From NCBI GenBank assembly GCA_963732695.1, contig CAVTAP010000012.1, positions 95,601 through 159,600 of the forward strand: 64,000 nt of DNA. The letters are read 5' to 3'. Origin of the DNA: an uncultured Actinomycetota bacterium. Its GTDB lineage: Bacteria > Actinomycetota > Acidimicrobiia > Acidimicrobiales > SZUA-35. The notes under the pieces were generated by a model. That model had not been told where the DNA came from, searched no databases, and saw only the letters and a program-made list of their open reading frames with translations. Made by a program: the position numbers and the translations under genes. This document shows, in pieces, positions 17,365 through 49,711 of the stretch (position 1 is the stretch's first letter; every line of letters begins with the position of its first letter).

Positions 17365-17416
17365 CAGATGCGTCCAGTGGTCGCAGTATGAGTTGTGCGA
17401 CGACTGGACGCAACTG
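17365..17416. promoter_or_regulatory. 21-bp inverted repeat (operator or hairpin)
   Basis: cagatgcgtccagtggtcgca-N10-tgcgacgactggacgcaactg, 2 mismatches. Confidence 0.55.
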
Positions 17417-27019: not shown

Positions 27020-28207
27020 ATGGCCAAGCCGCTGGAGGGCATCAAGGTCCTCGACTTCACCCGGGTGTTGGCCGGCCCGTTCGCCACCCGCATCCTGTCC
27101 GACCTCGGGGCCGACGTGATCAAGGTCGAGCCGCCCGAGGGCGACATGACCCGCAACATCGGCAAGAAGATCGCCGGCATCTCGGGTTACTACACCCAGC
27201 AGAACGTGGGGAAGCGGTCGATCTGCGTCGACCTGCTCAAGTCCGAGGGCCAGGAGCTGATCAAGCGGCTGGTGGCCGAGGCCGACGTCGTCACCGAGAA
27301 CTACCGCCCCGGCGTGATGGCCGAGATGGGGATCGACTGGGACACGCTGCACGCCATCAACCCCCGGCTGGTCATGATGTCGATCTCGGGGTTCGGCCAG
27401 GAGGGCCCGGAGCGGGAGCGGGCGTCGTACGCCCCGATCATCCACGCCGAGACCGGGATCCTGCAGCGACAGGCGATGGTGACCGGGATGGACCGCCCGA
27501 TGGACCTCGCCCTGTCGGTGGCCGACACCACCACCGGCATGCACGGCCTGATCGGGCTGCTGGCTGCGCTCCACCACGCCCAGCGCACGGGCGAGGGCCA
27601 GCACGTCGACATGGCGATGATCAACGCCATGTTCTTCACCGACGACTACGTTCACCTGGCGGTGCACGGGTTGGAGGCCCAGGTGGCGGCGGGGCTGGTG
27701 TTCAACGCCACCGGCGGGCCGATCATGCTGGCCGGCGACGAGAAGTGGTTCTGGCGGGTGCTGAACACCCGCGCCGGGGTCGAGGACCCGACGCCGGAGG
27801 GGGCCGACCTGGAGACCAAGATCCGGCTGCGGCGGGCGGCGATCGACGAGTACCTCCTGTCGTTCCCCGACCGGGCGTCGCTGATCGCCAAGCTCAACGA
27901 GGTCAACCTGGCCTGGGGCGAGGTGAACGACGCCCGTACGGCGCTCGACCACCAGCGTTCGGTGGAGGGCCGCCAGGTGCTGGTGGACGTCGACGACCGC
28001 GACGGTGGCACCCGGCGCACCACCAATACGCCGTACCGGTTCTCCGGGCTCGACGCCGGCGTGTCCGGGGCGGCGGCCCATCGGGGCGAGCACAACTACG
28101 CTGCCGTGCTCGACTGGATCGACATCAGCGCCACCGAGCTCGACGCCCTCCACGAAGCCGGCATCCTGCTGCGCGACGACTCCGCCGAAGCCCCCGACCT
28201 CCGCTAA
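27020..28207 (+). CDS. CaiB/BaiF class III CoA transferase
   Basis: PLEGIKVLD, LGADVIKVE, NVGKRS, ENYRPG, ISGFG. Confidence 0.93.
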   Translation: MAKPLEGIKVLDFTRVLAGPFATRILSDLGADVIKVEPPEGDMTRNIGKKIAGISGYYTQQNVGKRSICVDLLKSEGQELIKRLVAEADVVTENYRPGVMAEMGIDWDTLHAINPRLVMMSISGFGQEGPERERASYAPIIHAETGILQRQAMVTGMDRPMDLALSVADTTTGMHGLIGLLAALHHAQRTGEGQHVDMAMINAMFFTDDYVHLAVHGLEAQVAAGLVFNATGGPIMLAGDEKWFWRVLNTRAGVEDPTPEGADLETKIRLRRAAIDEYLLSFPDRASLIAKLNEVNLAWGEVNDARTALDHQRSVEGRQVLVDVDDRDGGTRRTTNTPYRFSGLDAGVSGAAAHRGEHNYAAVLDWIDISATELDALHEAGILLRDDSAEAPDLR

Positions 28208-29200
28208 CGAAATTGCACGCCTATCTCGCGCTCAGCGCGAGTTAGGCGTGCAAGAAGCGGCGGCACATGTCGACCAGTCCCTGCGGATCGTCGACGTACA
28301 TCGACCACAGGATCTCCTGGATGTTCCAGCCTTCGGCCTTGGCCCGGTTGCGCTTGCGGTTGTCGCGCTCCCGTTCGGTGCGGCCGAAATGGAAGGCCAG
28401 CCCGTCGAGCTCCCACGCCTTCTTCCGTAGCGGCCAGGCCAGATCGGCCTGCATGATGAACGATCCGTCGGCGGCCAGGATCCGGTGCTCCAGCACCGGC
28501 TCGGGCAGGTCGTTGTCGACCAGCAGGTTCGACACCAGCCGGCTGAAGTCCGACAACGGCACCGTCCTATCGCCGAGCCGTATCTCCAGCAGCGTCCGCA
28601 GCTTGCCGCACCCGTCCCGGCCTTTGCGGGAGTGCCGGCTCAGCGTCCGGGCCATATCCGGCCAGGTGGTCAACCGCTGACGGATGGCCGACTCCACCAG
28701 ACGTTCCAACCGGCGCACGGTGACGACAGCACCACAGTCGAGCAAGGTCCGACTGATCCCCGTCACCGGGATGCCCCGGATCACGGTCTCGTCCCGCAAC
28801 GCCCATTGCGTGGTCAGATGGACGCGGGCCCTGGGCACGACGCTGTGGCTGCGGCGGGCGACGACGACCTCGGGGGTCGGGTGCTGGTACATGCCGAGCC
28901 CCCAGAGAGCTGCTGCCGATCGATGCGAGGCGACTCCGCCCGACGCCAAGCAGGCGCCAAGTAGACGCGACTCCCACGATTCGGCGACGACGGCGTGGCG
29001 ATAGACGCCCTTGCGCTCACGAATCCACGAACCAGCCGCCATGCGACGATGGATCTGGCTGGCGCTCATGCCAGCGGCGATCGCCTGGGAACGGGTGATC
29101 AGCCCGTACTGCCGCCGAAAGTGATGGTCGACGGTGTTCATGTACTTCCCCTTCTTGCACGTGTAAGTCGCGCTCAGCGCGACTTACACGTGCAATTTCG
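28208..29200. mobile_element. Candidate hairpin-bounded element carrying an AbiEi-like/DUF559 gene
   Basis: Terminal inverted CGAAATTGCACG; ~50-bp hairpins at 28208-28257 and 29151-29200; no TSD seen; mobility is inferred. Confidence 0.55.
28242..29141 (-). CDS. AbiEi-like wHTH domain + DUF559/Vsr-like endonuclease domain protein
   Basis: RQYGLITR.Q..GVY, SHRSAAALWG, IPVT..RTLLD, ADLAWP..ELDG..FH..D..RN..GW. Confidence 0.88.
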   Translation of the reverse strand: MNTVDHHFRRQYGLITRSQAIAAGMSASQIHRRMAAGSWIRERKGVYRHAVVAESWESRLLGACLASGGVASHRSAAALWGLGMYQHPTPEVVVARRSHSVVPRARVHLTTQWALRDETVIRGIPVTGISRTLLDCGAVVTVRRLERLVESAIRQRLTTWPDMARTLSRHSRKGRDGCGKLRTLLEIRLGDRTVPLSDFSRLVSNLLVDNDLPEPVLEHRILAADGSFIMQADLAWPLRKKAWELDGLAFHFGRTERERDNRKRNRAKAEGWNIQEILWSMYVDDPQGLVDMCRRFLHA

Positions 29201-29237
29201 GATGGTTGAAGGGGGAAGGGGCCGGCGGAGGCGGAAG

Positions 29238-31982
29238 TTAGGTGCCGGGGGTGGTGACGGCGTTGAGCACGTTGAGGTTGGCCGCCCGGCGGGCGGGGAA
29301 CACGGCGGCCAGCACCCCGGCCAGGGCGGCGAACAGGATGGCGAACACCAGCGACTCCCACGGGATCGACACCGTGTCGACGATGCCCTCGGGGATGGCG
29401 ACCACGGCCGCCGTGGCGAACAGCACCCCGAGCACGATGCCGAGCACCGCCCCGAACAGGCACACGATCACCGACTCCCAGCGGATCGTGGCCCGGGTCT
29501 GCTCCCGGGTCATGCCCACCGCCCGCAGCAGCCCGATCTCCCGGGTCCGCTCGATCACCGACAGCACGATCGTGTTGATCACGCCCAGGAACGCCACGAA
29601 CAGGGCGAAGGCCAGCAACAGGTTGATCAGCGTGATCAGCGAGTCGACCTGGCCCTTGGCCGAGTCGAGGTACTCGCCGGTGTTCTGCACCGCGATCGAG
29701 CCGAACCCGTCGGCCAGCGACTGCACGTCGGCCTGCACCGCCGTCCGGTCGGCCCCCTCGGCCACCGTGGCCCCCACGAAGAAGTCGTCGGTGGCCTTGA
29801 CGTGGCGCTCGTAGGTGGACAGATCGATCACGAAGGGGCTGTTGAGCACCGAGTTGTCGTCGAAGATCGCCGACACCGTCAGGTCTTCGGTCTGCAGGTC
29901 GGGGAACTCCATCGGCAGGGTGTCGCCCACTTTCAGCCCCCGGCTCTCGGCCTCGTCGGCGAACACCATCACGCCACCGTCGGTCAGGCCGTCGACCGAG
30001 CCGTCGGTCACGCCGAACGTGAGCAGCTGCTCGCCGGTGCTGGCGTTGTAGGCCGACACCGACGTGACCTTGCCGTCGCTGAGGCGCACCTCATTGGCCC
30101 GGAAGCGGCTGACCACCCCGATCCCGTCGACCTGCTCGATCTGGTTGGCCAGCTCGCCGGAGAACGCCGACCCCGTCTCGTCGTAGATGAACAGGTCGGC
30201 CTTGATCGCCCGCTCCAGGGTGGCGGCGAACGTGGTCTTGAGCGACTGGCCCACCACGCCCACGGTGGCCACCAGGGCGATGCCGATGGTGAGGGCGGTG
30301 GCGGTGGCCGCCGTGCGCTGGGGCGACCGGGCGGCGTTCTGGCGGGCCAGCCGACCCTCCAGCCCCGCCCCCGAGCCGCCGATGCCCACGGTCTGGCCGC
30401 CCCGGGCCAGGCTGGCCAGGATCGACGCCCCGGTGAGCACGGCCACCACCGACACCAGCATCTTGATCACGAACACGATGCCGGAGAGCGGGCCGCCGGG
30501 CAGGCCCTTGCCCACGGTGAACGTGAGCACGGGCAACAGGATGCCCATGCCCAGCAGCGCCACCCCCAGAACCGGGGCCCGACCCATCAGGTCGACCACC
30601 GGCCCGGCGAACAGCACGCTCAGCATGGCCACCCCCACGAAGGTGAAGATCGCCCCGAACGCCAGTGGCACCAGCACCGACGAGGCGCTCCCCCCGCCGA
30701 ACAGGCCGAGGCCCATCAGCAGCAGGCCGATGGCCAGCACCACCGAGCCGATCACGATGCGCCGGGTCCGCTTGGACCGCGACGGCGCCTCGTTGCGCAT
30801 GGCGGCGATGGGCGACACCCGCCCGGCCAGGAACGCCGGCATCAGGGCCGACACGATCGTCGCCACCAGGCCCACCACGAGCGACACGATGATCGTGCGG
30901 GGCGAGATCACCGTGGACGTCTCAGGGAACCCGCCCCCGGCCTGGAACGCCTTCTTGATCCCGAACGCCACCACCAGCCCGAAGGCGATGCCGATGACCG
31001 AGCCCACCACACCCACGATCACGGCCTCCACCAGCACGCCGCGCCGGATCTGGGCCCGGGTGGCGCCGATGGCCCGCAGCATCCCGATCTGCTGCAGCCG
31101 CTGGTTCACCAGGATGGCGAACGTGTTGTAGATGATGAACAGGCTGACGAACAGGGCGATGCCGGCGAAGGTCAGCATGGCGTTGCGGAAGATACCGATG
31201 ACCTGCTCGAACCCGGCGCTGAAGTCGTCGACGACCTGGGCCTGGTCGAGCACCTCGGCCTCCGGAGGCAGCACCGTCTGCACCGCCGCGATCATGTCGG
31301 CCGTGCTCACGCCCGAGGCCCGGGTGAGGGCGATCTGATCGACCTGACCCACCTTGCCGAACAGCTGTTGGGCCGAGGCGAAGTCGAACAGCACGTAGTA
31401 GGCGCCGGCGGCCACGCTCGGCTCCACGACGGCGGACACGGTGAAGGTCCGTTCCCCGCCCGGCGTGCTCATCCGCACCTGGTCGCCAACCGACACACCG
31501 GCGGCCTTGGCGTAGTTGCTGTCGATCGCCGTCTGGTCGATGCCGTTCGGCGGGGTGCCCTCGGCCGAGGTGATGAACGAGCCCGTGTCGCCGTTCCACG
31601 AGAACGAGATCACGGGCCCGCCCTGGGGCTGGACCCGGGAGCCGTCGTCGCGCAGGATCACGAACGGACGGAAGTTCTGTTCCGAGTCGACCCCCACGCC
31701 GGGGTCGGCCTCGCCCACCTCGGGCAGGGCGGCCACGGTGGCCACCAGGCTCTCGGGCAGGCTCACCGGGTCCTGGCCGAACTCGGGATCGGCCGCCTGG
31801 ATCTGGGCGTCGGTCCCGGCGGTGGCGTCCTCGATGAGGCTGGTGAAGGTTCCGCTCAGCGAGTCGCTGAGGATGAAGGCGCCCGACACGAACCCGACAC
31901 CGGCGACGATGGCGATCGTCATCAGCACGAGCCGGCCGAGGCTGGCCCGGATGCCCCGCAGGGCGAGCTTGATCATGGTCAC
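29238..31982 (-). CDS. ABC transporter permease, duplicated FtsX/MacB type
   Basis: IYNTF..QR..IGMLRAIGA and INT..ERTREIGLLRAVG. Confidence 0.93.
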   Translation of the reverse strand: MTMIKLALRGIRASLGRLVLMTIAIVAGVGFVSGAFILSDSLSGTFTSLIEDATAGTDAQIQAADPEFGQDPVSLPESLVATVAALPEVGEADPGVGVDSEQNFRPFVILRDDGSRVQPQGGPVISFSWNGDTGSFITSAEGTPPNGIDQTAIDSNYAKAAGVSVGDQVRMSTPGGERTFTVSAVVEPSVAAGAYYVLFDFASAQQLFGKVGQVDQIALTRASGVSTADMIAAVQTVLPPEAEVLDQAQVVDDFSAGFEQVIGIFRNAMLTFAGIALFVSLFIIYNTFAILVNQRLQQIGMLRAIGATRAQIRRGVLVEAVIVGVVGSVIGIAFGLVVAFGIKKAFQAGGGFPETSTVISPRTIIVSLVVGLVATIVSALMPAFLAGRVSPIAAMRNEAPSRSKRTRRIVIGSVVLAIGLLLMGLGLFGGGSASSVLVPLAFGAIFTFVGVAMLSVLFAGPVVDLMGRAPVLGVALLGMGILLPVLTFTVGKGLPGGPLSGIVFVIKMLVSVVAVLTGASILASLARGGQTVGIGGSGAGLEGRLARQNAARSPQRTAATATALTIGIALVATVGVVGQSLKTTFAATLERAIKADLFIYDETGSAFSGELANQIEQVDGIGVVSRFRANEVRLSDGKVTSVSAYNASTGEQLLTFGVTDGSVDGLTDGGVMVFADEAESRGLKVGDTLPMEFPDLQTEDLTVSAIFDDNSVLNSPFVIDLSTYERHVKATDDFFVGATVAEGADRTAVQADVQSLADGFGSIAVQNTGEYLDSAKGQVDSLITLINLLLAFALFVAFLGVINTIVLSVIERTREIGLLRAVGMTREQTRATIRWESVIVCLFGAVLGIVLGVLFATAAVVAIPEGIVDTVSIPWESLVFAILFAALAGVLAAVFPARRAANLNVLNAVTTPGT

Positions 31983-49661: not shown

Positions 49662-49711
49662 CCGAAATGAGGACCTGAGGTGCGCTGAGCGCACCTCAGG
49701 CTCCTCAGAAT
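49662..49711 (+). repeat. Solo hairpin of the CGAAAT-stem-GCGCTSAGCGC-stem-AGAA family
   Basis: ccgaaat gaggacctgaggt gcgctgagcgc acctcaggctcctc agaat; between convergent genes. Confidence 0.8.

Follow-up and report, generated by a model that had tools for sequence, protein, structure and literature searches.

Why should a single nuclease gene, without a toxin partner beside it, lie exactly between two inverted copies of one 50-nt hairpin? The locus that raises this question lies in a 64,000-nt stretch of contig CAVTAP010000012.1 (positions 95,601 to 159,600; assembly GCA_963732695.1) from an uncultured Actinomycetota bacterium, and this whole stretch is called the window below. A preliminary description, made from the letters alone, had read the locus as an orphan AbiEi-like/DUF559 nuclease gene bracketed by inverted hairpins, and as a candidate element that mobilizes repetitive extragenic palindromic (REP) sequences without a REP-associated tyrosine transposase (RAYT). 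Our own reading, toward which we stand evenly balanced between acceptance and doubt, is that the nuclease family is in a specific partnership with palindromic intergenic repeats. It would be a functional analogue of the system formed by RAYTs, REPs, and REP doublets forming hairpins (REPINs), with a PD-(D/E)XK nuclease replacing the HUH tyrosine transposase. The own genome (G000; 7.46 Mb, 26 contigs, ~ 71% GC, 92% complete, Acidimicrobiales) was compared with 60 relatives, giving 61 genomes. These are mostly metagenome assemblies, in which repeats break contigs (e.g., G007), and related genomes are non-independent samples.

At the locus itself, the anatomy was found to be much as first described (Table 1). 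Both hairpins match the pattern CGAAAT-TGCACG-N8-GCGCTSAGCGC-N8-CGTGCA-AGAAG with 0 mismatches, and the pattern had no match elsewhere in the window at up to 3 mismatches and none in 100 dinucleotide shuffles. Read along the + strand, the left hairpin consists of the CGAAAT flank, a 14-nt stem arm, the GCGCTCAGCGC apex, the second stem arm, and the AGAAG flank. As single-stranded DNA it folds at -23.2 kcal/mol (z = -5.7) and the right hairpin at -25.4 kcal/mol (z = -9.3), with 0/200 shuffles folding as well in each case. The two are inverted and face inward, with AGAAG on the gene side and CGAAAT outside. Their stems differ by compensatory changes (CCTATCTC/GAGTTAGG vs TGTAAGTC/GACTTACA) that keep the pairing, with one mismatch in the left stem; selection on structure is not required for such changes, and template switching within the palindrome could be an alternative source.

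Exactly one open reading frame (ORF) lies between the hairpins. Its final codons and TAA stop fall inside the left hairpin, which itself starts directly after the TAA of a coenzyme A (CoA)-transferase ORF. Nine nucleotides separate the ATG from the right hairpin, whose AGAAG flank overlaps the likely ribosome-binding site and which lies 38 nt past the stop of an ATP-binding cassette (ABC) permease ORF. These two ORFs are the gene's neighbors, and no AbiEii toxin is adjacent. That the gene is less GC-rich than they are was true only marginally (67.0% vs 69.4% and 70.0%, the 11th percentile of gene calls), and a foreign origin was not accepted on so marginal a difference. The gene-free relative noticed near 49662 is a solo hairpin (CGAAAT, GAGGACCTGAGGT stem, GCGCTGAGCGC apex, AGAA) with the apex and flanks of the window pair and a different stem; it directly follows a + strand TAG stop, and the family has no gene in its vicinity. 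An Rfam identity was sought across 27500-30000 and rejected, nothing coming near threshold (best mir-4716, 23.6 bits vs a cut-off of 76). One further strong hairpin in the window, at 17369-17412 (G000:C12:112969-113012), has unrelated sequence, a 16-bp stem, and a 10-nt loop, and is distant from family genes.

Table 1. Features of the hairpin-framed gene and of the related solo hairpin, in window positions
Feature	Position	Strand	Basis
Left hairpin repeat (gene-distal, 3')	28208..28257	+	Exact pattern match, DNA fold
Right hairpin repeat (gene-proximal, 5'), inverted relative to left	29151..29200	-	Exact pattern match, DNA fold
AbiEi-like/Vsr-fold nuclease gene, 299 aa	28242..29141	-	ORF, Pfam, PADLOC, AlphaFold model
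AbiEi-like module, codons ~ 1-190	28572..29141	-	PF13338 at residues 3-48; 6y8q_A fold match
Vsr-like PD-(D/E)XK nuclease domain, codons ~ 200-299	28245..28544	-	Conservation, 3r3p profile and fold match
Solo hairpin, same superfamily	49663..49710	+	Pattern, DNA fold z -7.4

Is this arrangement peculiar to one locus, or does it belong to the gene family? G000 holds 9 family genes, namely the window gene and 8 paralogs found by tblastn, which are 27-43% identical to the window protein. For each, the longest exact word common to the upstream (-260..+20) and downstream (-45..+160) flanks was determined. A shared word of at least 15 nt was found in 5/9 family genes, compared with 26/4720 control genes. 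When the 15 top controls were scanned, 4 proved to be insertion sequence (IS) transposases and the rest ordinary genes; the presence of IS transposases there means that the test detects true mobile elements. They are an IS66-type (C7:76849-78306), a DDE_Tnp_1_4, a DDE_Tnp_1, and an rve-type transposase, and two further 485-aa control genes may, judging from their length alone, be IS66 copies. The top-control loci include C7:76849-78306, C7:814511-815968, C26:205842-207299, C26:11152-12522, C25:293613-294737, and C21:39673-40773.

Outside G000, 80 related loci were taken from other Acidimicrobiales genomes, using an alignment of the 4 closest family members as the query, and 74 of these had complete flanks. 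A shared word of at least 13 nt was observed in 34/74 loci, compared with 10/434 cross-locus (shuffled) pairings and 1/69 displaced windows of the same loci. GAAAT/ATTTC, a motif of the hairpin base, was found at ~ 3.4 per kb in the flanks of the related loci, at 0.41 in the genes, and at 0.33-1.39 in displaced windows. The association of gene and hairpin is real, specific, and widespread, and the supposition that such genes carry matching flanks as a class was borne out on both scales. The shared-word test was used in place of a stringent hairpin detector (stem >=14, mismatches <=2, loop <=14) because the detector overlooks hairpins with internal loops; among the 80 related loci it called a hairpin upstream in 9, downstream in 7, and on both sides in 3.

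The pairing is also cognate. Within G000, the same hairpin family lies on both sides of the C1, C9, C17a, and C25 copies, and the C7 copy is framed by related repeats. Each family gene has a different hairpin family, and each hairpin family is also dispersed, a result that is noisy for the shortest motifs. On either side of the gene stands a copy of its own hairpin family, the two being inverted, and the 3' hairpin often lies over the stop codon, as in the C1 and C17a copies. Such overlaps are offered as examples, with no statistical claim, because a test for such hairpins by folding energy did not discriminate (65/78 loci passed, vs 65/76 displaced control windows). Upstream ORFs can be affected as well: the one at C25:384462 has acquired an additional C-terminal tail and uses a stop codon supplied by the element, compared with an empty site in G005 (G000:C25:384330-384580), and at the C17a site (G000:C17:340560-340700) the upstream ORF likewise ends within the hairpin. 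No AbiEii partner adjoins any of the 9 copies, and the genome's two AbiEii (PF08843) matches (C14:6524-7006 and C10:2253-2642) are on contigs that have none of the family genes.

Solo copies proved to be numerous. G000 has 78 GCGCTSAGCGC cores, 33 of which cap a hairpin with at least 10/14 flanking positions paired, and 15 copies are strict. Stems under this apex are of the TTGCACG.., TGGCGCG.., and TAGGAGCCTGAG.. types, and a longer, composite form exists as well. Among the 33 hairpins, flanks are asymmetric CGAAAT...AGAA in 19, symmetric AAAT...ATTT in 3, and symmetric TTCT...AGAA in another 3; 5 match partially, 1 does not match, and 2 are of the composite form. By our own gene calls, convergent genes flank 10 of the 19 oriented solo hairpins, and both stop codons are then usually 0-11 nt away; solo copies of the hairpin families mostly sit squeezed between the ends of genes. 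A solo unit consists of one hairpin, or of tandem repeats in the two arrays seen; no inverted doublets were noticed, although no dedicated search for them was made. Across many families, G000 has 163 strong hairpins compared with 7 in a codon-block shuffle, and GAAAT/ATTTC reaches 0.51 per kb outside coding sequence, compared with 0.15 within it.

These hairpins combine a conserved AT-rich base with a stem that varies and a palindromic apex matched to the clade of the protein; the base motifs are GAAAT...ATTTC/AGAA, or GAAC...GTTC in another clade. A solo hairpin with CGAAAAT...CAGAAGG flanks and a different stem and apex was observed in G003 (G003:C448:1120-1500), a genome that has neither the GCGCTSAGCGC family nor a close homolog of the protein; the flank design is therefore common to several hairpin families in the genus. 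Another long pair of palindromes, composite and of the GTTCGAACCG...GTCGCGA type (G000:C1:51513-52377), encloses a 156-aa ORF with no Pfam match (C1:51811-52281), and one of the two bears the GCGCTGAGCGC apex. This ORF could have arisen by chance or could be a further gene of the hairpin-associated kind.

If gene and hairpin form a unit, their distributions across genomes are of interest. Arms of the form GAAAY-N12-18-GCGCTSAGCGC number 27, 55, 27, 10, and 19 in G000, G004, G005, G007, and G009; none of the remaining 56 genomes has more than 1, and a reversed control pattern gave 0-1. The five arm-rich genomes are those that have a homolog of the window protein with at least 61% identity; the others reach at most 44% among the matches listed. 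A second family, CCTCATGGAGCGTCTCACCGGTGAGAC (CCTCATGGAG...CACCGGTGAGAC), makes an independent case: at up to 3 mismatches it gave 36 arm matches in G000 and 0 in the 60 relatives, and the gene that its hairpins frame has no relative above 68% identity in them.

Hairpins and proteins were also found to diversify together. The stems at the orthologous loci begin TTGCACG.. in G000 and G005, TAGGAGCCTGAG.. in G004 and G007, and TTYGTGGGTTYGACA in G009, and where they are fully different the base and the GCGCTSAGCGC apex are unchanged. At different loci, the C1, C9, C7, and G004-C2 proteins (62-68% identity to the C1 protein) all go with a CACCGGTG-type apex. A FastTree phylogeny of 83 proteins required 1 change per apex label, compared with at least 2 and at least 3 when labels were shuffled. 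The apex tracks protein clades as had been proposed, although with n = 3 and 4 this co-phylogeny is suggestive only.

What kind of protein keeps this company? At residues 3-48 it has a winged helix-turn-helix (wHTH; Pfam AbiEi_4, PF13338, E 7.6e-11), and the PADLOC AbiEi model matches residues 10-173 (E 1.8e-26). An AlphaFold model (mean pLDDT, the predicted local distance difference test, 88.3) was built from 43 aligned sequences, namely the window protein, its 8 paralogs in G000, and 34 hand-picked from the 80 related loci. Residues ~ 1-190 of the model resemble the whole AbiEi structure 6y8q_A (191 aligned columns; target-normalised template modelling (TM) score 0.64; E 1.4e-5), the second domain being modelled like the AbiEi C-terminal domain. 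The last ~ 100 residues have a fold like that of the catalytic domain of I-Bth0305I, a homing endonuclease (3r3p_B; target-normalised TM 0.71, probability 1.00), with the Vsr structures 1vsr and 1cw0 also among the fold matches, and a profile search of PDB sequences matched 3r3p as well (E 0.0014). In this domain D233 and H251 are invariant, and E244 and D260 are present in at least 90% of the 43 aligned members; from this conservation, we infer that the four residues are probably catalytic.

Of the original AbiEi-like/DUF559 assignment, the AbiEi part stood and the predicted structure has the Vsr-like fold, but the DUF559 Pfam model (PF04480) did not match the window protein. The sole nuclease-side Pfam match was a sub-threshold MTES_1575 (E 0.0038; 17.7 bits vs a cut-off of 38.2 bits). 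No NCBIfam model matched the window protein, and one paralog matched the DUF559 NCBIfam model weakly (E 0.0074, far under cut-off). No transposase domain was found in the window protein with Pfam. The gene is under purifying selection, with a dN/dS (nonsynonymous to synonymous substitution rates) of 0.22 against the G004 ortholog. Among 8000 candidates scored, 1396 proteins matched the family at E <=1e-5; it is common in Acidimicrobiales, where its members are usually annotated as 'AbiEi family antitoxin domain-containing protein' or 'hypothetical'. Carriage on plasmids was considered and rejected, a single distant match (27% identity) being found among 72,556 plasmid records.

Orthologous sites in the relatives reveal how the units turn over. 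At the C1 site, G000 has the gene with its own hairpins, G005 has a different family member on the opposite strand with its own hairpin type, and G004 has an unrelated ORF (FAD (flavin adenine dinucleotide)-oxidoreductase-like by eye, with no family scan) and no visible hairpins. At the C7 site, G000 has repeats and gene, G007 is an exact empty site whose flanks abut, G004 has hairpins only, as two tandem solo copies, and G005 has the gene and a downstream flank match as far as the contig end. The C9 site, with gene and hairpins in G000, is empty in G005 and G007, and G004 retains a ~ 110-nt deletion remnant. The C25 site of G000, again with gene and hairpins, is collinear in G004 and G005, and in G007 the gene lies in the opposite orientation and has diverged further than the DNA around it. 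At three convergent junctions, the place of a solo hairpin is vacant or taken by hairpins of other families in relatives that are ~ 90% identical in the flanking genes. The expectation of empty sites held at paralog loci and at solo-hairpin sites; for the window locus none was found.

At loci orthologous to the window locus, extra DNA of ~ 1.5 kb (G004:C12:156410-157893) and ~ 2.7 kb (G005:C6:24903-27592) was observed between the nuclease gene and the CoA-transferase hairpin, with an ORF that starts just past that hairpin and looks by eye, with no family scan, like an extracytoplasmic function (ECF) sigma factor. G000 and G007 lack this extra DNA and have a single hairpin there, the product that recombination between two hairpins would leave.

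The same turnover could be read in another way, and this is the main rival, which we rate as improbable but worth serious attention. Here the hairpins would be spread by some other process, and the nuclease genes would be selfish cassettes that insert at a hairpin they recognize; cognate pairing would reflect the choice of target, and not mobilization of the hairpin by the protein. The nuclease fold, nearest to a homing-endonuclease catalytic domain (3r3p), speaks for it. So do the C7 site, with hairpins only in one relative vs hairpins and gene in G000, and the C17a site, with a solo hairpin in G003 vs a cassette in G000; IS elements that target REPs are on record (PMC1525189). When the locus is examined as one would a homing gene, the window gene is intergenic and lies between two complete hairpins, and empty and hairpin-only sites occur at paralog loci. 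Against insertion into standing targets, neither the CCTCATGGAG..CACCGGTGAGAC hairpins nor a close homolog of their gene was found in the 60 relatives; these hairpins were therefore no pre-existing targets and multiplied only in the gene-bearing lineage. Both flanking hairpins are, moreover, complete and the ORF extends into the 3' one, and therefore they look like part of the unit, not like a split target.

Rather unlikely, in our estimate, is an explanation by regulation only. The protein would be an orphan AbiEi-type repressor or a nucleoid-type factor whose palindromic operators double as bidirectional terminators, its nuclease domain being inactive or engaged in unrelated repair, with the repeats turning over through ordinary recombination and mutation templated by the palindromes. 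In its favor are the repression by AbiEi of its own promoter via inverted repeats, the likeness of the N-terminal 190 residues to a complete AbiEi fold, and the position of the upstream hairpin against the start codon. The GCGCTSAGCGC apex is a perfect 11-bp palindrome, as for a dimeric operator, and the 10/19 oriented solo hairpins between convergent genes occupy terminator positions. The solo copies, however, lie at gene 3' ends and not at promoters, and the conservation of D233, E244, H251, and D260 across the 43 members, with purifying selection on the gene, argues against an idle nuclease domain. Repeat presence, absence, and replacement between genomes ~ 90% identical in flanking genes also tell against it, and passive decay offers no ready explanation for a one-genome hairpin family with 36 arm matches.

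The idea that abundant terminator-like hairpins are merely recombination hot spots between which variable genes accumulate has in its favor the 163 strong hairpins vs 7 in the shuffle, the ordinary genes sometimes found between same-family hairpins, and the extra DNA with the ECF-sigma-like ORF (by eye) in G004 and G005, but it is disfavored to the point of being very hard to credit by the enrichment controls (5/9 vs 26/4720; 34/74 vs 1/69), by the different, matching hairpin family of every paralog, by apex motifs that track protein clades, and by the C1 site in G005, where a different family member has its own hairpin type.

Several observations also weigh against the partnership that we favor. 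The five arm-rich genomes are one another's closest kin, with CoA-transferase identity of 83-97%, and because of this their co-occurrence may be a single evolutionary event. No clear matching flank pair was seen in 4/9 own-genome members and in about half of the 74 loci, some ordinary genes (periplasmic binding proteins, a pyridoxal phosphate (PLP) enzyme) also lie between same-family hairpins, and the control genes for the own-genome tests came from the author's own crude GC3-based gene caller. G005 and G007 retain their 27 and 10 arms despite apparently broken orthologs. The window locus is syntenically stable beside the ABC permease in the four genomes whose homolog reaches 75% identity or more, and a search of the relatives gave no empty counterpart; none can be defined because the CoA-transferase orthologs in G009, G003, G001, and G002 are away from the ABC permease. 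At C7 and C9, the two sites with readable insert boundaries, no convincing target-site duplication was observed. Finally, a PD-(D/E)XK nuclease alone is incapable of HUH-type strand transfer, which leaves the spread of hairpins to new sites unaccounted for.

Two of these points come with sequence detail. The G005 ortholog (G005:C6:27592-28391) is in two pieces covering residues 1-143 and 164-297, and that of G007 (G007:C92:12779-13667) has an internal stop in translation; because the genomes are metagenome assemblies, the breaks may be assembly errors, or they may be real decay. At the right junction of the C7 insert (G000:C7:722626-722695 vs G007:C585), the insert ends in GGGAAACGCC, ~ 12 nt before the flank's GGGCGTTTCG. 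This GGGAAACGCC makes a small new palindrome with the target's GTTTCG, which could point to an inverted target duplication or be chance.

Weighing these, we return to the partnership of nuclease and repeats, which draws on observed anatomy, cognate pairing, co-occurrence, turnover, and purifying selection on the gene. The preliminary description had suggested that the protein may recognize and nick its own hairpins and maintain or spread them; pairing, solo copies, co-occurrence, and turnover agree with this at the sequence level, and from them we infer that the nuclease protein, rather than something else, binds and nicks the hairpins and moves or maintains them. In such a mechanism, the AbiEi-like module would bind the palindrome, most likely at its apex, and binding at the copy beside its own start codon would bring autoregulation. 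The Vsr-like domain would then nick at or near the conserved hairpin base, and repair or replication at the nick might copy, replace, or homogenize hairpins. The hairpin-gene-hairpin arrangement would behave as a cassette open to gain, loss, replacement, or inversion. We put forward more tentatively, and with some doubt, the stronger proposal that AbiEi-like wHTH/Vsr-fold nucleases may be structure- and sequence-specific nickases that create, homogenize, and disperse hairpins and cassettes without a transposase, and may represent a second, independently evolved bacterial class of palindrome replicators.

If this is true, many orphan AbiEi antitoxin/DUF559 annotations in Actinomycetota would belong to a palindrome-replicating system and not to toxin-antitoxin pairs, and a large protein family now labeled orphan antitoxin or hypothetical would gain a function. 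Palindrome upkeep by a dedicated enzyme would have evolved more than once, on another nuclease fold and in another phylum. The fast intergenic turnover and the contig breaks of Acidimicrobiales genomes would be partly explained, and nature would have supplied a new, diversified set of palindrome-specific nucleases that bind DNA, with targets readable from the gene flanks.

How does the system compare with those already known? To our knowledge, REP/REPIN-RAYT is so far the model case of short palindromic repeats that a dedicated enzyme, passed on vertically, maintains and multiplies, and in every instance the enzyme is an HUH transposase. In both systems, a short palindromic repeat, found dispersed in extragenic DNA, also flanks the gene as inverted copies, different gene copies pair with different repeat families in one genome, and a gene lineage co-occurs with its own repeat family across genomes, here through few independent events in kin genomes. 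In both, the gene is inherited for the most part vertically and in synteny, and a conserved tag marks the repeat base. The RAYT features compared here are drawn in part from published work (PMC3116915, PMC3337134, PMC3333891, 10.1101/2022.05.22.493013). Unlike in RAYT systems, the enzyme here is an AbiEi-like wHTH joined to a Vsr/PD-(D/E)XK fold and not a Y1 HUH transposase. The non-RAYT label was upheld by 0 PF01797 (Y1/RAYT) matches in the 92%-complete G000, in a search for which control genomes gave matches. The base tag is GAAAT/AGAA or GAAC, not the GTAG or CGTC at the REP end (in part from PMC3733652), the copies per family are in the tens and not in the hundreds, and the phylum is Actinomycetota.

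Other systems share single features. Like AbiEi of the type IV AbiE system, the protein has an N-terminal wHTH (PF13338) and a second domain, with an inverted repeat beside its own start codon; unlike AbiE, it has no adjacent AbiEii partner, carries an extra C-terminal nuclease domain, and has dispersed repeats on both sides. With I-Bth0305I, other EDxHD homing endonucleases, and Vsr it has in common the catalytic-domain fold, as modelled, and conserved acidic and His residues, and with homing endonucleases also a gene of selfish-element style and variable presence. It differs from I-Bth0305I and Vsr in being a free-standing intergenic gene, with no intron or intein, in its AbiEi-like fusion, and in its dispersed hairpins. 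Like IS200/IS605 and other IS, the unit has inverted hairpin-forming ends and an ORF that extends into a terminal repeat, and its flank-sharing values are in the range of the control genes that proved to be IS transposases; unlike IS, it has no DDE, HUH, serine, or tyrosine transposase and no target duplication seen at C7 and C9, and its copies within one genome are diverged paralogs (27-68% identical) and not near-identical. In the parts of the literature accessible to our search, nothing linked DUF559 or AbiEi-type nucleases to flanking or dispersed hairpins. The partnership looks like an undescribed counterpart of that between REP repeats and RAYTs, built on a different enzyme.

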